From IMG/VR virus record IMGVR_UViG_3300004888_000001, positions 1 through 55,935 of that record: DNA of 55,935 bases. The stretch is one strand, 5' to 3'. The DNA is from a virus. Every line of letters begins with the position of its first letter. Positions within the stretch are counted from its first letter, which is position 1. The notes beneath the pieces were generated by a model. It searched no databases. It saw only the letters and a list, made by a program, of their open reading frames with translations, and had not been told where the DNA came from. This document shows, piece by piece, positions 5,014-14,251 of the stretch. Position numbers and translations under genes: made by a program.

Positions 5014-5589
5014 ATGATCAAAACATTAGCGCAATTGAAACGAGAAGCCGCAAACTATACTTGGCAGCTTTATTCATACTCTCACGATAACGGTAAGACT
5101 GAAAAGGCTCACCCGTTTAAAGACTTTGTTCGCACAGTCGATAAAGTGGCAAGTAAAGAGATTTACTTATCAACTCCGAGCGGCAACAGTTCTTCAATGC
5201 CATTTGGCAAAGCTGCAAATTGGAAGTTCGAAAAATACCTGTATAACGATACTGACGTTATTGTTGTTGTGCAAGTACCAGAAAGCTCAGTGGTGATGCG
5301 ATACCATTTGAGACCGGTAAAGGTTAAGCCCGCTCACGTTGACCATATCACCTTATCTGAATTTTGGGCTTGTGACTTCTGTATGGTTCAGCGAGTGGAT
5401 ACAGAGACTGTGATTGTTCGATTCGATTCCGCCCTTGAAAGCGGCAGACCTTGCGGACTTGCTCGCTATGCAACACTTAAAAACGTAAGTGGTCAAAGAG
5501 CTAACGACAATGGCACGCTTAAAGTACTAGGTACTGCTATGGTGGCTCGCAAACTATTTGACTGGATAGGTGACGACAGCGAAGTTTAA
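5014..5589 (+). CDS. Hypothetical early protein (191 aa)
   Basis: ORF track entry with the related leader ACCTTCACTGGATAAAAATCGATG. Confidence 0.7.
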   Translation: MIKTLAQLKREAANYTWQLYSYSHDNGKTEKAHPFKDFVRTVDKVASKEIYLSTPSGNSSSMPFGKAANWKFEKYLYNDTDVIVVVQVPESSVVMRYHLRPVKVKPAHVDHITLSEFWACDFCMVQRVDTETVIVRFDSALESGRPCGLARYATLKNVSGQRANDNGTLKVLGTAMVARKLFDWIGDDSEV

Positions 5590-10483: not shown

Positions 10484-11023
10484 ATGAAATTTGAGTACAC
10501 TTTCAAGCTTGCTCCTGCAACCGAGCAGGTAACACGAAAAGCAACAATTGGAGTCAACGGACAAGTTGAAACGGTTGTTGTTAAGGATAACCAACTTATT
10601 CGTGAGTTCGCGATCAATGAGGTTGTTGACGTATCGTTTTTCGATGTTGATGCAGCAGGTAATCCGTCAACGCCAACAGTCGTCTTGCAAAACAAAACGA
10701 TGGTTGATGATGTTGCACCTGAAGCGCCCGGCGTTGAGATTTGCGTAAAGCAAATCGAAGCTGAAGGTTCAACTGAAGGTTCAACTGAGCAAGTTGAACA
10801 GGAAGACGGAAACGGAGAAGGTCCGGTTGGAGAAACCAACACTGAGCAGCCTCCAGCAGAGCAAGAAGGTGTCGAAGCAATGCAAGACACTGAGCCACCT
10901 GCACCTCCAAAAGTTGAAGAACCAACAGTTGAGCAGACTGGTTCGACTGTTGCCGACAATGGAGCAATTGTTCCTCCACCTGCAAACGGATCAGGTGCTA
11001 GTAACCCAGAAACTAGCGGCTGA
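10484..11023 (+). CDS. Hypothetical protein (179 aa): beta-rich N-terminal half and a very acidic Glu/Pro-rich C-terminal half
   Basis: ORF track entry. The antisense track ORFs here are low-complexity artefacts. Confidence 0.7.
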   Translation: MKFEYTFKLAPATEQVTRKATIGVNGQVETVVVKDNQLIREFAINEVVDVSFFDVDAAGNPSTPTVVLQNKTMVDDVAPEAPGVEICVKQIEAEGSTEGSTEQVEQEDGNGEGPVGETNTEQPPAEQEGVEAMQDTEPPAPPKVEEPTVEQTGSTVADNGAIVPPPANGSGASNPETSG

Positions 11024-11028
11024 TGCTG

Positions 11029-11060
11029 ATTCAGGATAACAGTTTGTTATTCTGAATTTT
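11029..11060 (+). terminator. Rho-independent terminator-like hairpin
   Basis: The 13-bp stem attcaggataaca/tgttattctgaat (one G-U) has loop gtt and is followed by TTT. It begins 6 nt after the stop codon at 11021-11023. Confidence 0.55.
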
Positions 11061-11140
11061 CAGAATGATGGAGCGTATGTAAATCCATATAAGGTCCGAT
11101 TTATTCGGCTTAGGTTTTACCCTTTGTTATTCTGATAGTT

Positions 11141-11246
11141 TGATCGGTGACTGAGCGGTTTAAAGTTAATCCTAAACAACAATGGTGAGCGATAGCTTTT
11201 AGGAAGCTGCAAGAATCCATCGCAGGTTCGAATCCTGCCCGATCAA
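11141..11246 (+). tRNA. tRNA-like element (Leu-UAG-like) with a 25-nt insertion between the D arm and the anticodon stem
   Basis: Perfect 7-bp acceptor stem (tgatcgg/ccgatca). Type-II D arm (act-GAGCGGTTTAA-agt). Anticodon arm tagct-TTTAGGA-agctg. 12-nt variable region. T arm gcagg-TTCGAAT-cctgc. At 106 nt it is too long for a canonical tRNA. Confidence 0.4.
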
Positions 11247-11447
11247 CTTGAGTGAGAGGTGCAATACCGCTATTAAAATAAGGGGTTTGAATCCCTAAGT
11301 CGCTCACTCATTCATTTACTTATGTCAAAAACACTGGTAACTTTTAAGCGAGACAGCCAGTAGTTTCAACCACGGGAAACGTCAACGAAATCATAAGAAT
11401 TTGTAGGTACAAGTGGTTGTTTTTATTTACATTCACGGAGGAACACG

Positions 11448-11708
11448 ATGTTAGTTTTGTCAAGAAAGAAAAATGAGATGGTAATGGTCGGTGACGACAT
11501 AAAGATAGTCGTTGTCGAGATTCGAGGCGATAAGGTACGATTGGGGATTGAAGCTCCGCAAGATGTGCCAGTTCATCGAATTGAAGTTTATGACGCAATA
11601 CAACGAAAGAAGAAGGCAGACCCAGATGCTACCAATCAAATCAACAAACACGATACCGATCAAGCCCCACTCAGTCGTTTTCGGACCAGCAAAGTCGGGA
11701 AAGACTAG
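11448..11708 (+). CDS. csrA: CsrA/RsmA-family RNA-binding translational regulator with a C-terminal extension (86 aa)
   Basis: MLVLSRKKNEMVMVGDDIKIVVVEIRGDKVRLGIEAPQDVPVHRIEVYDAI matches the CsrA signature (MLxLxRK...GDDIxI...GxxVRxGIxAPxxVxVxRxExY). The RBS is ACGGAGGAACACGATG. Confidence 0.9.
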   Translation: MLVLSRKKNEMVMVGDDIKIVVVEIRGDKVRLGIEAPQDVPVHRIEVYDAIQRKKKADPDATNQINKHDTDQAPLSRFRTSKVGKD

Positions 11709-12297
11709 ACTGATACCCACATTGGAGGCTCCGCTTATCTGCTCAGTAGATAAGGGTTTGGAGAGCATTCGGCAATATGATATTCCATGCGTCGAATGCG
11801 ATACTTGGGATCATGTTGCAGCATTCAATCAATTCGTTTACAGCGACAGTGCTGAAAAGAAAAAGTATCGTGAGTTCGTTTACGATGATTTGACTGAGGC
11901 AGCCGGGCTTTATTTAGTTAAGTGCTTACTTGCTAACAAAGATGGTCGGAAGGCGTACGGTCAAATGGGCGAAGAGATGATGTACTTCTTTCGCGCCATT
12001 CGAGAACAACGAGAACATATTGCAGTGCTACTTTGCAAAGAGGAACGTGTTCAGAACAATAAAGGTGAGCTGCTTTATTCGCCAATGTTGCCCGGACAGG
12101 CTTTGCAACCAATGGTTCCATACATGTTCGGTCAGATTTACCACATGGAACTTTGGACTCATCCTGAAACACAGCAGATTCACGAAGTTCTTCGGTGCAA
12201 ACGCAATCAGCAAATCGAAGCTGGTGATCGAAGTGGTAAGTTAGCCGAGATTGAGTATGCGGATCTCGGAGCAATCAACCGAAAGATAATGAGTTAG
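11626..12297 (+). CDS. Sak4-like RecA-fold ATPase (AAA_24-type), recombination-associated
   Basis: Walker A VVFGPAKSGKTRL lies near the N-terminus when translation starts at ATG 11626. Walker B is FVYDDLTE. The start overlaps the csrA 3' end by 83 nt. The track start at 11512 lies inside csrA. Confidence 0.7.
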   Translation: MLPIKSTNTIPIKPHSVVFGPAKSGKTRLIPTLEAPLICSVDKGLESIRQYDIPCVECDTWDHVAAFNQFVYSDSAEKKKYREFVYDDLTEAAGLYLVKCLLANKDGRKAYGQMGEEMMYFFRAIREQREHIAVLLCKEERVQNNKGELLYSPMLPGQALQPMVPYMFGQIYHMELWTHPETQQIHEVLRCKRNQQIEAGDRSGKLAEIEYADLGAINRKIMS

Positions 12298-12303
12298 AAG
12301 TTG

Positions 12304-12369
12304 TGTAGGGCTAAGATGGTTCTGGCGCACCATGGGTGTCCAAAGTGGGTTCAATTCCCGCCCCTACGC
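12304..12369 (+). tRNA. Short tRNA-like element (CAU anticodon position), non-canonical
   Basis: Acceptor tgtaggg/ccctacg (U-G at pair 1:72). Tiny D arm aga-TGGT-tct. Anticodon arm ggcgc-ACCATGG-gtgtc (two G-U pairs, C at position 33). T arm gtggg-TTCAATT-cccgc. Only 66 nt long. Confidence 0.3.
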
Positions 12370-12428
12370 CTGTCAATTGACTTTGTGGGCATGACAACCC
12401 AGAACATTAAACCTAAGAGGATAAATTT

Positions 12429-13199
12429 ATGTCAGCCAATTTAGAAGGCGTTTTCAATCCGCAAGACCATGACCCAACAATGGGCGGTGGTCAGTCACTT
12501 CCACCGTCTGGTCCTGATGGTTGGTTAGTAACCATCATCGAATCAGAGATGAAACAAACGCAAGATGGTACGAGTATGATGCTCGCTCTGCTTTGTAAGA
12601 TCATGGAAGGACCGCAAACAGGCGTTGAAGGTTATTGGAACCTTAATTTGGGACATGGCAACCCGGTAGTGGTTCGCATTGCTCAGCAAGCTCTATCCTG
12701 CATCTGTCACGCTGTCGGTCATCTTGGACCGATTCAGAACACAGAACCGTTGCATAACAAGCCTTTCCGTGTTGTTGTTGCTGCTCAAATCGATAAGGCA
12801 ACAGGTTTGCCTGATGAACGCGGTTACGTTGACATTAAGAAGGTGTTGCGTGCCGATGGGTCAAAGTTGAGCGATCCTGCCGGGAGTGGCGGTGCGGCTC
12901 CCGCACCGGCGCCAGCTCCAGCGCCGACAGCACCTGCTCCCTCGCCTGCCCAAGCAGCACCGGCGCCAGCTCCAGCTCAGCCTGCGATTACTAACGAAGT
13001 TCCTTTGCCGGCCGCTCCAGCAGCCCCACCGGCAGCTCCAGCTCAGGCAGCACCTGCTCAGGCTCCAGTGACTCCGCCGACTCCGGCAGCAGGCTGGCCG
13101 ACAGAGGCAGCTCCGGCTCCACCTGCGGCACCTACTCAGGCAGCGCCGGCACCTGCGACAGCGCCGCAAGGTCAACCGTGGAATCAACCTTCACAATGA
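12429..13199 (+). CDS. DUF669-like phage ssDNA-binding/recombination accessory protein with a roughly 110-aa Pro/Ala-rich tail
   Basis: It lies directly after the Sak4-like ATPase, and the N-terminal 150 aa resemble DUF669 proteins. The C-terminus is (P/A)n low complexity (GC-rich, 12880-13190). Confidence 0.55.
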   Translation: MSANLEGVFNPQDHDPTMGGGQSLPPSGPDGWLVTIIESEMKQTQDGTSMMLALLCKIMEGPQTGVEGYWNLNLGHGNPVVVRIAQQALSCICHAVGHLGPIQNTEPLHNKPFRVVVAAQIDKATGLPDERGYVDIKKVLRADGSKLSDPAGSGGAAPAPAPAPAPTAPAPSPAQAAPAPAPAQPAITNEVPLPAAPAAPPAAPAQAAPAQAPVTPPTPAAGWPTEAAPAPPAAPTQAAPAPATAPQGQPWNQPSQ

Positions 13200-13305
13200 C
13201 CTAAGTGTTTAACCGTCGGTTGTGACGGAGAATGTGTACCATTCTAAGAACTTGAGCGGTCGGTGTCTTCTCCTCCGTTTAGCTGGCAACAGCACGCTCA
13301 TTTAT

Positions 13306-13423
13306 GCCGAAGTATGCAAACGGTATAGCAGCCCTCCTGTGAGGGGGTGGTTAGGGGCATCGATCAACGATCTGGTCGTATTGATGAACACCTGATGTGA
13401 GGGTTCGAATCCCTTGTTCGGAA
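13306..13423 (+). tRNA. tRNA-like element (His-GUG-like) with a roughly 50-nt insertion in the variable region
   Basis: U8-A9 are present. D arm tgc-AAACGGTATA-gca. Anticodon arm ccctc-CTGTGAG-ggggt. T arm gaggg-TTCGAAT-ccctt. The acceptor pairs only 5 of 7. The 50-nt insert folds as a hairpin (atcaacg...cgtattgat). Confidence 0.3.
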
Positions 13424-13438
13424 TTTTATTTTTAACCT

Positions 13439-14251
13439 GTGAGAGCAATGAATCATCAAGTTGTCAACATGGATTGCGTTGAATACTTACGCAACGGATT
13501 GTTATGCCCACAGAAGTTTGATTTGATAGTTGCAGATCCGCCATTCAATATAGGACAAGACTATCAATCGTACAAGGATGTAATGACAGAAGGGCAGTAC
13601 AACAGATTCACTGAGAGTTGGGTTGCTCACTGCTTTATCAAATTGAAACCGGGAAGCGTCATGTTTTTACATGGCTCAACTAAGGTATGTAGGACAATAA
13701 CTAGAATTCTATTTTTACTTGGCTTGGAGAAATTTGTCGAACAGGAAATAGTTTGGGCGTACAATTTTGGTCAATGCAACTTCAGCCGATTCATCGAGAC
13801 TCATTGCCGCGCAATCGTGGTTCGTAAGCCCGGTGATGAACGCAAATGGAATGTTGAGTCAGTAATGACTCCATCCAAGCGATTGCTTATGGGTGACAAG
13901 AGAGTTGAAACATCAAAATACAAAGGCATGATACCGTTCGGAACTGTTTGGGGTGTGAAATCTGAAGACAGTGTGCCACTGGAGCCAATGGAGGGCGAAC
14001 CTAATTGGGGTCGCGTCCAAGGCAATAATAAAGAACGTCGCAAGGGACACCCTAACCAGTTACCTGAACGATACATTGAAAGGATAATTCTTGCATACTC
14101 AAACCCGCCAGATACTGTTTTTGATCCTTTTGGTGGTAGCGGGACTACTATTGCAGTAGCAAAGAAACTTGGTCGTAACTGTGTAACAACCGATATAAGC
14201 GAGTGGAATTGTGATTCGATTAAGCAAAGATTGGGAGCCTCAAATGGTTAA
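13439..14251 (+). CDS. DNA amino-methyltransferase (N6-adenine or N4-cytosine), beta-class motif order
   Basis: Catalytic motif IV IVADPPFNIG comes before the SAM motif I FDPFGGSGTTIAVA. The track start is GTG at 13439; an in-frame ATG is at 13448. Confidence 0.85.
   Translation: MRAMNHQVVNMDCVEYLRNGLLCPQKFDLIVADPPFNIGQDYQSYKDVMTEGQYNRFTESWVAHCFIKLKPGSVMFLHGSTKVCRTITRILFLLGLEKFVEQEIVWAYNFGQCNFSRFIETHCRAIVVRKPGDERKWNVESVMTPSKRLLMGDKRVETSKYKGMIPFGTVWGVKSEDSVPLEPMEGEPNWGRVQGNNKERRKGHPNQLPERYIERIILAYSNPPDTVFDPFGGSGTTIAVAKKLGRNCVTTDISEWNCDSIKQRLGASNG

Follow-up and report, generated by a model that had tools for sequence, protein, structure and literature searches.

A candidate family of tRNA-derived, tRNA-shaped RNAs between early genes of an uncultured tailed-phage clade

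The window analysed was the whole 55,935-nt stretch of DNA from IMG/VR record IMGVR_UViG_3300004888_000001, an uncultured phage. Three tRNA-shaped elements lie on its + strand, at 11141-13423, in gaps between early replication and recombination genes. We tentatively read them as members of one lineage-specific RNA family, tRNA-derived and tRNA-shaped, whose RNAs would be excised by host RNase P and RNase Z and are not ordinary decoding tRNAs. The family probably originated from a type-II tRNA-Leu and sits between the early replication/recombination genes of a clade of uncultured tailed phages.

The neighbouring genes, all on the + strand, were a csrA homologue (11448..11708; Pfam CsrA, E = 1.7e-24), a Sak4-type AAA_24 recombinase (11629..12297; Pfam AAA_24, E = 1.2e-19), a DUF669 gene (12429..13247; Pfam DUF669) and an N6/N4 DNA methyltransferase (13448..14251; Pfam N6_N4_Mtase, E = 1.1e-41). 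The start of Sak4 is uncertain, the annotated ORF overlapping the 3' end of csrA. The DUF669 reading frame comprises 12429-13199, ending in TGA, and a Cys-rich, in-frame extension of 15 codons past it (13200-13247); the TGA and such an extension occur in 8/8 clade members. The original prediction placed one element in each of three intergenic gaps. This was correct for the elements, but the gaps also hold terminator-like hairpins, and 13200-13247 looks coding, so that the true gap 3 is shorter.

Rfam tRNA models matched all three elements on the + strand at the positions first proposed, the match to element 2 starting at 12303. Each had been credited with a textbook T loop, and a T stem with a UUCRANY loop does lie next to the acceptor in every case, paired 5/5 in all three; the acceptors of elements 1, 2 and 3 are paired at 7/7, 7/7 and 5/7 positions. 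Their lengths are 106, 66 and 118 nt, against approximately 72-95 nt for a canonical bacterial elongator tRNA.

Element 1 (106 nt; 11141..11246, +) scored 36.3 bits with the Rfam tRNA model, above the cut-off of 29. It comprises an acceptor (11141-11147 / 11239-11245), a D arm (11150-11166), a 25-nt insertion (11168-11192), an anticodon-type arm (11193-11209), a variable region (11210-11221), a T arm (11222-11238) and A73 (11246). U8 and a D-loop GG are present. The anticodon arm is canonical (UAGCU-UUUAGGA-AGCUG, with UAG, U33 and G37), displaced by 25 nt; the RF00005 alignment accordingly shows 45 nt in place of the model's 17-nt anticodon arm. The claim that this element has every type-II Leu(UAG) feature is overstated, because the variable region is 12 nt long and has neither stem nor arm. 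Its acceptor and T arm are common to elements in six relatives (L003, L030, L028, L011, L002 and L013).

Element 2 is compact (66/67 nt; 12303..12369, +) and scored 20.6 bits with the tRNA-Sec model, below the cut-off of 47. G-1 (12303) is followed by the acceptor (12304-12310 / 12362-12368; 8/8 pairs if G-1:C73 is included), a reduced D arm (12313-12323), an anticodon-type arm (12324-12340), a T arm (12345-12361) and C73 (12369). Position 8 is C, the D stem has 3 bp, and the 4-nt D loop (UGGU) and C33 were as originally described; the anticodon arm reads GGCGC-ACCAUGG-GUGUC, giving CAU. The equivalent position in relatives is occupied by a tRNA-like element. Assignment as tRNA-Sec (RF01852) was considered, given 8 possible acceptor pairs and the 4-nt D loop, and rejected: the score is below the cut-off, there is no UCA anticodon or long variable arm, and the D stem is only 3 bp, where a tRNA-Sec has 6 bp and an 8/5 acceptor/T-stem geometry.

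Element 3 (118 nt; 13306..13423, +) scored 18.2 bits with RF00005, below the cut-off of 29. Its acceptor (13306-13312 / 13416-13422) is mismatched at 1-72 and 7-66. The D arm (13315-13330) is normal, and the anticodon-type arm (13332-13348; CCCUC-CUGUGAG-GGGGU) carries GUG in a canonical loop on a stem with one mismatch (4/5). A 50-nt hairpin (13349-13398), aligned by RF00005 as a 47-nt insertion, fills the variable region and is followed by a perfect T arm (13399-13415), A73 (13423) and then UUUUAUUUUU. The GUG arm, the hairpin and the incomplete acceptor were all as first reported. The positional counterpart is L033 4950-5035.

The sensitive Rfam scan covered 10900-13600. Rfam E-values are multiplied by 4227 families; by arithmetic, the per-family values are approximately 2e-4 for element 2 and 6e-4 for element 3. 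An Rfam run in gathering mode, using fast filters, gave no match in the window, and neither did ARAGORN at default settings. The suggested ARAGORN run with introns allowed (-i) also called nothing at the default threshold, and relaxed thresholds gave only noise. Perfect T arms, defined as 5/5 pairs, G53-C61 and a UUCRANY loop, number 4 on the + strand of the window, three of them in these elements, and 0 on the - strand, with 0.075 per strand in shuffles. GGTTCRAWTCC with at most one mismatch was matched 13 times against 3.6 expected. A tmRNA (RF00023) was considered and rejected, as neither ARAGORN nor Rfam gave a match in the window and the acceptors have no G3:U70; a partial tmRNA match in L005/L028 reached only 13.7 bits.

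Directly 3' of element 1 is a terminator-like long stem (11250..11319, +), identified by folding and by covariation in relatives. GAGUGAG (11250-11256) pairs with CUCACUC (11303-11309), followed by AUUCAUUUAC, and the hairpin encloses the T-arm-like GGGGUUUGAAUCCCU. Its closing stem covaries in L005, L003, L011, L030, L032 and L002 and is always trailed in relatives by a U-rich tract of UUUACA type; its 5' part recurs upstream of the gap-3 hairpin (repeat family D5). A second stem with a U-run, read from the sequence, lies upstream of csrA (11367..11431, +): CAACCAC (11367-11373) pairs with GUGGUUG (11413-11419), then UUUUUAUUUACA, and the module resembles one abutting csrA in relatives. Directly 3' of every gap-2 element is a conserved 32-nt block, in the window CTGTCAATTGACTTTGTGGGCATGACAACCCA (12370..12401, +), with 94-97% identity in L001, L002, L005/L028, L006 and L033. 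It holds the palindrome GTCAATTGAC, which is preserved by the substitution in the L003 version, TGTTAATTAACT. A terminator-like hairpin also lies directly 5' of element 3 (13254..13305, +), in which GAGCG (13254-13258) pairs with CGCUC (13295-13299), followed by AUUUAU. GC-rich homologues with a U-run occur in L001, L002, L003 and L033, and in L033 the order hairpin, UUUAU, tRNA-like element is the same as in the window. Elements in gaps 1 and 3 abut covarying hairpins with U-runs.

Relatives were uncultured phages found via Sak4, of which 53 homologues were used. In relatives with 43-83% Sak4 identity, tRNA-like elements occupy the same gaps on the same strand, and the elements of the window and relatives are between 66 and about 154 nt long. 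Each has kept a paired acceptor stem, a GG in the D loop and a canonical T arm. A strict architecture scan (5/5 T stem with G53-C61, UUCRANY loop, abutting 7/7 acceptor, U8 and GG) over 174 kb found 15 elements on the gene strand and 0 on the opposite strand, with 0.2 in shuffles, and every element on this list has the D-region GG. Across the acceptor and T stems of 12 gap-1 elements, 99.3% of cells are paired and double changes occur at 9/12 pairs, a result reached by 0/500 shuffles. These statistics, from both scan and covariation set, are inflated, because pairing helped to decide which sequences entered the sets, and because these sequences are related to one another. Of 31 pairs compared between L003 2813 and L028 4126, 5 have changed in a compensatory way and 0 are broken, and the two share a covarying insert hairpin. 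The comparison with related phages that had been proposed as a check did find compensatory substitutions in acceptor and T stems. The final 25-26 nt are 96% identical among the window, L005, L028 and L011, while bodies and flanks are unalignable.

The anticodon region is variable across the family, with A33, G33 or C33 in place of U33 and loops of 5, 6, 8 or 9 nt. In L002 4416 a CUUG tetraloop replaces the anticodon loop, yet the element scores 48.3 bits. Inserts of 25-90 nt occur at varied sites (D loop, 26/27 junction, anticodon arm, variable arm). Above-cut-off Rfam matches in relatives number 7, all at only 36-51 bits, and the ARAGORN calls in relatives (7/7) show A34 or C33, or an anticodon that is undefined or reads a stop codon. 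U is found at -1 in 18/27 elements and A73 in about 20/26; CCA is encoded in no element, and CU follows the discriminator in 19/26. Gap-2 elements differ despite identical Sak4 in L001 and L002 and in L005 and L006, and the L030 paralogues 2008, 2555 and 3941 have the same acceptor on different bodies. No such elements were found in the clade relatives L009, L019, L025 and L027, which makes them dispensable.

On this comparative sequence evidence, selection retains the part read by the maturation machinery: the acceptor and T arm as a coaxial 12-bp helix, the T loop, the elbow-forming D-loop GG and, mostly, U-1 and A73. The anticodon/variable region is free to change, expand or be replaced. 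This combination makes decay and introns unlikely and routine decoding doubtful. Of the explanations originally offered, tRNA mimics that recruit RNase P/Z fit the comparative pattern best, and cleavage is predicted; the polycistron that they were supposed to cut needs amendment, because gaps 1 and 3 contain terminator-like hairpins, so that the 'operon' is not simply one unbroken unit. The elements would be co-transcribed with neighbouring genes, and host RNase P would cut their 5' ends and RNase Z their 3' ends, the latter assigned because no CCA is encoded. Early transcripts would be severed at fixed points beside protective hairpins, and stable tRNA-like small RNAs, possibly receiving CCA, would be released; the useful product could be either the severed mRNA or the small RNA that is set free. 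Other points count against this processing reading, besides the inflated statistics and the absence of the elements from some relatives. The hairpins of gaps 1 and 3 could set transcript ends alone. The loops of elements 1 and 3 are canonical (UAG, GUG), which a pure signal would not need, and the cassette-like swaps at identical Sak4 resemble an arms-race locus more than a housekeeping signal.

Such turnover is compatible with the decoys for tRNA-targeting defences that were among the original suggestions. Here, released CCA-bearing RNAs would soak up or block host immune enzymes that read the acceptor, T arm, elbow or anticodon loop, and non-decoding RNAs would leave translation undisturbed. 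We regard this as possible, though on the doubtful side. It is in keeping with the location of the elements in the early region on the gene strand, with the rapid exchange of gap-2 elements within the L001/L002 and L005/L006 pairs, and with several paralogues per genome that share an acceptor on unlike bodies, as in L030. Changes concentrate at position 33 and in loop size, beside known anticodon-nuclease cut sites, and published defences can read only acceptor, T arm and CCA: Cas12a3 cleaves despite stepwise loop removal (PMC12851939). Phage tRNAs are known counter-defences, but the counter-measures known from phages are decoding tRNAs, not mimics. A decoy would not need large structured inserts, and sequence does not separate it from the processing reading.

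Structured inserts are central to a more speculative and rather doubtful proposal, that of a 'tRNA scaffold' system occurring in nature: a tRNA-Leu-derived chassis stays constant and carries an exchangeable middle payload acting in trans, with cassettes swapped between phages at conserved junctions. If this were so, the chassis would secure excision, CCA addition and stability via host tRNA enzymes, and the payload would be the altered anticodon loops, long hairpins and ~90-nt structured inserts, serving for example as a regulator or as uncleavable bait for tRNA-directed immune nucleases or transferases. Engineered tRNA scaffolds are man-made, with the payload inserted instead of the anticodon arm; like the family described here, they join a variable insert, sometimes structured, to a constant acceptor/T-arm/D chassis. 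The literature searched yielded no natural counterpart in phages.

It is unlikely that the elements are working, unorthodox tRNAs, with element 1 reading Leu CUA, element 2 Met/Ile AUG/AUA and element 3 His CAY, and with odd loops and arms that evade anticodon nucleases. Elements 1 and 3 do have a 7-nt loop, U33, purine 37 and the nucleotides that make the tertiary contacts of the L shape (U8, A14, GG, T loop), and element 2 has CAU in a 7-nt loop on a 5-bp stem. The D/anticodon coaxial stack fixes the anticodon-to-acceptor distance, and from tRNA structure the 25-nt insertion of element 1 between position 26 and the anticodon stem is expected to break this stack. In element 2, U8 and U33 are missing and the D arm is reduced. 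Element 3 has the acceptor mismatches at 1-72 and 7-66 and is also without the G-1:C73 pair found in bacterial tRNA-His. Syntenic homologues do not keep anticodons, one having no anticodon loop at all; ARAGORN rejects 3/3, and 2/3 fall under the Rfam cut-off. Nuclease-evading phage tRNAs with altered anticodon loops are described in a published report (PMC10264068).

Decaying tRNA pseudogenes, functionless relics of a former phage tRNA cluster, would explain the low covariance-model scores, insertions, non-canonical loops and element 3 acceptor mismatches, and also the complete loss of elements in some relatives. Decay should affect all arms equally, yet T arms are perfect in 3/3 and the acceptors pair at 7/7, 7/7 and 5/7 positions. 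Stems evolve by compensatory pairs within intergenic DNA diverged past alignment, and orientation is uniform (15 on the gene strand vs 0). This second of the original options is accordingly very improbable, and the acceptor, T arm and elbow in particular lend it no support. The first, interrupted or intron-bearing tRNA genes from which extra segments are removed, fares worse still and is highly improbable. A near-normal cloverleaf does result if 11168-11192 in element 1 or the 50-nt hairpin in element 3 is taken out. The inserts are, however, at 26/27 or in the variable region, not in the anticodon loop, where bacterial group I tRNA introns sit, and at 25-50 nt they are far under ribozyme (group I) size; in homologues they lie elsewhere with unrelated sequences. 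No Rfam intron or ribozyme match was found in 10900-13600 or the relatives scanned, the intron-permitting ARAGORN run at default threshold was negative, and csrA argues for a bacterial host, which would be without archaeal splicing endonuclease. That the elements are attP sites, copies of the 3' portion of a host tRNA gene that serves in integration, is barely credible: conservation is indeed highest in the T arm and 3' acceptor strand (96% identity over 25 nt across phages), but the 5' acceptor strand is kept too and covaries with the 3' strand, there are up to three elements per genome, and no integrase was found among the window proteins scanned, which cover part of the window.

Compared with known systems, the elements share with phage tRNA genes, such as the T4 and T5 clusters, a cloverleaf-derived form with acceptor stem, D-loop GG and T arm GGUUCGAAUCC, the absence of an encoded CCA and a gene-strand position between phage genes; the Rfam score of element 1 is also above the cut-off. 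They differ in their sizes, in rejection by ARAGORN and in anticodon arms that are displaced or altered, in homologues replaced, with same-gap anticodons not kept. The MHV68 TMER vtRNAs and MALAT1 mascRNA, non-decoding viral and cellular mimics processed by RNase P/Z, are likewise tRNA-shaped modules in longer transcripts with adjacent hairpins, valued for tRNA-enzyme recognition and not for decoding. Those are eukaryotic (pol III/pol II, ELAC2), whereas here the virus is bacterial, the inserts are much larger and more variable, and processing is only predicted. In mitochondrial tRNA punctuation, processing enzymes define mRNA ends and the tRNAs still decode. Units of tRNA shape between one-strand ORFs and reduced D arms, as in element 2, are shared with that system; spacers of 6-130 nt from element to ORF, with terminator-like hairpins alongside, are not.

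Some bacterial tRNA-like RNAs are reported to be retained without a translation role, namely B. cereus tRNA-Other (PMC3399842) and the Y-RNA-like YrlA RNAs (PMC4201824). The gene for tRNA-Other has one chromosomal copy, of normal size. YrlA, with a tRNA-like domain closed at the acceptor end and an rsr (Ro) gene next to it, has the reverse topology, the RNA ending at a Ro-binding stem where the elements here end at the acceptor. No Y-RNA-type Rfam match was found in the window scan (10900-13600) or the relatives scanned, and no TROVE/Ro domain among the window proteins scanned (part of the window). The proposed mechanism has a direct precedent, in that host RNase P cleaves the tRNA-like folds of certain phage and operon transcripts: the P1/P7 C4 antisense RNA precursor, phi80 M3 RNA and polycistronic operon mRNAs (PMC11143913). 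Such cleavage is known for RNAs of partial tRNA resemblance; the elements described here form a multi-copy syntenic family with full tRNA hallmarks (T loop, elbow GG and 7-bp acceptor).

The window is the complete contig (55,935 bp) of an uncultured tailed phage. Its early region comprises an NrS-1-type primase-polymerase, DUF7173, an ORF without assigned function (10484-11023), CsrA (11448-11708), a Sak4-type AAA_24 recombinase (ending at 12297; start codon uncertain), DUF669 (12429-13199) and a DNA methyltransferase (13448-14251), together with an NrdR-like zinc ribbon, a Cas4-like exonuclease, a helicase and a DNA polymerase. Three tRNA-like elements were located in this region, all on the gene strand: element 1 upstream of csrA (gap 1), element 2 between sak4 and DUF669 (gap 2) and element 3 between DUF669 and the methyltransferase (gap 3). 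Among the window proteins scanned, no tRNA-related enzymes were found, and the module around the elements consisted purely of replication and recombination genes.

Rfam tRNA-clan models, run with sensitive filters over 10900-13600, matched exactly at the coordinates of the original prediction. Element 1 (11141-11246, +) scored 36.3 bits with the tRNA model (cut-off 29), with 45 nt replacing the 17-nt anticodon arm; element 2 (12303-12369, +) scored 20.6 bits with the tRNA-Sec model (cut-off 47); element 3 (13306-13423, +) scored 18.2 bits with the tRNA model, with a 47-nt insertion in the variable region. Rfam at gathering thresholds with fast filters reported no match in the whole window. Relaxed speed filters are needed for element 1 to exceed its cut-off, and the standard gathering run missed it, so routine annotation would overlook this class of element. 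ARAGORN, originally proposed as a check, made no tRNA call in the window at default settings; its relaxed modes (lower thresholds, long introns, mitochondrial, tmRNA) gave approximately 100 to 150 calls across the window and were discarded as noise. Because standard annotation misses all three, such elements may be under-counted in viral metagenomes.

The anatomy described in the original prediction was also correct for inserts, loops and pairing, as read from sequence and fold. Element 1 comprises a 7/7 acceptor, U8, GG in the D loop, 25 inserted nt, a canonical anticodon arm (UAGCU-UUUAGGA-AGCUG), a 12-nt variable region, a perfect T arm and A73. The elements presumably originate from tRNA-Leu, judging by the UUUAGGA loop and a D-arm likeness. 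Element 2 (66 nt) has a 7/7 acceptor (8/8 counting G-1:C73), C8, a D arm with a 3-bp stem and 4-nt loop, and the loop ACCAUGG, giving CAU with C33. In element 3 the acceptor is paired 5/7 and the D arm is normal; a 4/5 stem bears the loop CUGUGAG (GUG), and a 50-nt hairpin takes the variable position ahead of a perfect T arm. Four perfect T arms were counted on the + strand of the window and none on the - strand, against a chance expectation of 0.075 per strand (shuffles); three are those of elements 1-3. The fourth T-arm-like hairpin (5412-5428, GAUUG-UUCGAUU-CGAUU) lies inside ORF 5014-5589, lacks an acceptor partner and probably arose by chance. A further candidate element at 11250-11311 was not counted: the T stem and the closing stem are not coaxial, and the closing stem is a covarying terminator-like stem present in all relatives.

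No DNA match to known phages was obtained from the phage collection, and Sak4 was at most 34% identical to that of cultured phages. Neither Sak4 nor the exact 3' motif had a match in IMG/VR; a degenerate 3' motif recovered one genuine relative (L013) plus chance matches, and a gap-2 motif search recovered no relatives. A search of genome contigs gave a single partial, irrelevant match, and in E. coli genomes the sole match, 26 nt of the T arm, was to a plasmid tRNA-Arg. Syntenic loci of uncultured phage relatives (L001-L033) were obtained from Sak4 homologues in metagenome assemblies. tRNA-like elements occupied the same gaps on the same strand in most loci with Sak4 at least approximately 49% identical to that of the window, and also in L007 (Sak4 43%). 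Rfam placed seven elements of the relatives above cut-off, each at only 36-51 bits, and ARAGORN made seven calls; many more, 66-154 nt in length, were recovered with a parser anchored on the T arm. MAFFT could not align the variable bodies, so the analysis relied on the Rfam model and an explicit architecture scan in place of a family covariance model. The strict scan (5/5 T stem with G53-C61, UUCRANY loop, abutting 7/7 acceptor, U8, GG in the D region) found 15 elements on the gene strand of 174 kb, against 0 on the opposite strand and 0.2 expected from shuffles. The sample comprised approximately 25 non-redundant elements related by descent, from loci spanning +/-3.5 kb only.

Common to the elements upstream of csrA, whose lengths are 69, 71, 74, 85, 104, 106, 112 and 135 nt, are the acceptor UGAUCGG/CCGAUCA, discriminator A, the trailer CUU(G) and the leader ..GGUU. 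Across 12 of them, 99.3% of acceptor and T-stem cells are paired and both sides have changed in 9 of the 12 pairs (reached by 0/500 shuffles), covariation counts that are biased in that pairing was a search criterion and the sequences are related. T-stem pair 51-63 varies among G-C, A-U, C-G and U-A. The final 25-26 nt are 96% identical among the window, L005, L028 and L011 (Sak4 56-73% identical), and the bodies and remaining intergenic DNA do not align. The elements at L003 2813-2966 and L028 4126-4277 are homologous over their full length, with 5 compensatory pairs and 0 broken of 31; one compensatory pair falls in a hairpin within the insert. The compensatory substitutions sought in the original prediction are thus present in acceptor and T stems, both in the 12 gap-1 elements and in the L003/L028 pair. 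U occupies position -1 in 18/27 elements and A73 is found in approximately 20/26; CCA is encoded by none, and CU follows the discriminator in 19/26.

Despite the selection bias, the contrast between the stems and everything else is strong, and on this comparative evidence selection keeps the acceptor/T helix, the T loop and the GG of the elbow, which RNase P, RNase Z and the CCA-adding enzyme recognise. As the best explanation, held tentatively, we read the elements as tRNA mimics that the tRNA-processing enzymes of the host would excise, thereby severing early transcripts beside protective hairpins and/or releasing stable tRNA-like RNAs. RNase P is reported to cut phage and operon RNAs having tRNA-like folds (PMC11143913).

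The anticodon region is not conserved across the family. The element at L002 4416-4482 scores 48.3 bits, yet carries CCCG-CUUG-CGGG instead of an anticodon loop. The loop is 9 nt at L002 3168 (or has A33 on a 7-nt reading), 6 nt at L030 2555 and 5 nt in L012; C33 precedes UUU at L006 1642, G33 precedes CUA at L007 4247-4319, and no anticodon arm is recognisable at L028 3110 or L028 2601. The site of the insert differs as well: it is the D loop at L033 4950, the stretch after position 26 in element 1, an elongated anticodon arm at L003 3092 and the variable arm in element 3 and at L030 3941. Identical Sak4 proteins accompany entirely different gap-2 elements in L001 and L002 (P0002; 127 nt vs 67 nt) and in L005 and L006 (P0007; 152 nt vs 74 nt), which points to cassette-like exchange at conserved junctions. 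A homologous 152-154-nt element occupies different gaps in L003 and L028, and L030 carries three paralogues with nearly equal acceptors and differing bodies. ARAGORN assigned stop-codon-reading anticodons at L007 4247-4319 (CUA, 'Pyl') and L032 3100-3183 (UUA, 'Stop'); no sign of stop-codon reassignment was seen in the long ORFs of the window.

Cassette-like turnover and the changes around position 33 would also fit decoys against tRNA-directed immunity, a function we consider rather improbable and one that is compatible with processing of the elements as mimics. The acceptor, T arm and CCA can by themselves suffice as targets of tRNA-directed immune systems (PMC12851939). Routine decoding by the family is unlikely because the anticodons are neither canonical nor conserved across it; in element 1, judging from tRNA structure, the 25-nt insert between position 26 and the anticodon stem would break the D/anticodon stack. 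Elements 1 and 3 retain canonical loops, so these two alone might conceivably decode. Two further options of the original prediction were not supported: the positions, sizes and diversity of the inserts do not fit intron-bearing or interrupted tRNAs, with no ribozyme or intron model matching, and pseudogene decay does not fit because it would erode every arm alike, and the acceptor and T stems are kept instead. An attP copy was rejected, as a covarying 5' acceptor strand would be superfluous.

The junctions of the elements with their surroundings are fixed. Every gap-2 element ends flush with a conserved 32-nt block (CTGTCAATTGACTTTGTGGGYATGACAACCCA, window 12370-12401), and the block directly 3' of element 2 (CTGTCAATTGACTTTGTGGGCATGACAACCCA) is 94-97% identical in six relatives. 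Its palindrome GTCAATTGAC is replaced by GTTAATTAAC in L003, a symmetric double change. The block may serve as operator, promoter element or processing signal. A long covarying stem and a U-rich UUUACA tract come after element 1 and its homologues, and element 3 and L033 4950 directly follow a conserved GC-rich hairpin and (A)UUUAU. In the window the long stems lie at 11250-11319, 11367-11431 and 13254-13305, with tracts AUUCAUUUAC, UUUUUAUUUACA and AUUUAU; their closing stems covary among relatives, and the motif AACTTGAG begins both gap-1 and gap-3 hairpin copies (repeat family D5). By their form, the hairpins flanking the elements resemble intrinsic terminators or attenuators. Upstream of element 1, a 13-nt direct repeat (TTTGTTATTCTGA) was also found in two exact copies, at 11043-11055 and 11123-11135; the second copy stops 5 nt short of the element.

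Among the closest known things are ordinary phage tRNAs, which share the origin of the elements and differ in constraint, RNase P substrates such as the P1/P7 C4 RNA, mitochondrial tRNA punctuation and engineered tRNA scaffolds, as well as MHV68 TMERs and mascRNA, which are tRNA mimics of the same logic as proposed here, but eukaryotic. Full-text literature searches turned up no account of a phage family like this one. The usual reading of phage tRNA genes is codon supply or, more recently, replacement of tRNAs destroyed by host immunity. A conserved family in which just the half of tRNA recognised by enzymes is kept would exemplify a third use, the borrowing of host tRNA maturation machinery to shape phage transcripts or make stable non-coding RNAs, and it supplies defined, testable predicted cleavage sites. 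If the elements do act as decoys or scaffolds, they would constitute a new class of RNA directed against defences, and a natural template for scaffolds in RNA expression.

The element shared by L003 2813-2966 and L028 4126-4277 recurs at about L005 1036-1187. Its insert contains a conserved hairpin ([G/C]CCCGA..UCGGG[C/G]) and, in L003 and L028, a conserved four-codon mini-ORF (AUG CUN NCC CGC UAR); a pattern search of IMG/VR for the latter returned chance matches in coding sequence only. The tmRNA model gave a weak 13.7-bit match overlapping the same element in L028 and L005, and a tmRNA-like reading of the 152-154-nt elements was rejected; G3:U70 is absent. A search for antisense targets of the inserts within the phage gave just 10-12-nt matches (E >= 0.1).

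A CsrA sponge or binding site, prompted by AGGA in the element 1 loop upstream of csrA, was not convincing: the 25 elements contained 31 GGA (31.7 expected) and 8 AGGAA (3.4 expected). The csrA leader (11432-11450) reads UUCACGGAGGAACACG-AUG, and ACAGGAACGGAUUCAA-AUG in relatives. GGA motifs span the ribosome-binding site in both forms, so CsrA might control its own translation. The csrA 3' end overlaps the sak4 ORF 5' end by tens of nt (11629-11708), likewise in relatives.

DUF669 ends in TGA followed by an in-frame Cys-rich extension (PKCLTVGCDGECVPF; 13197-13247) without its own start codon, an arrangement also seen in L001, L002, L003, L011, L012, L028 and L033. A UCA anticodon was found in none of the tRNA-like elements. 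All 8/8 clade members carry the TGA and an in-frame extension of 15-53 codons, mostly with (V/I)PF at the end, and in L001-L003 a covarying hairpin or pseudoknot-like structure immediately follows the TGA. The arrangement suggests programmed UGA read-through, or other recoding, that adds a zinc-ribbon tail to DUF669.
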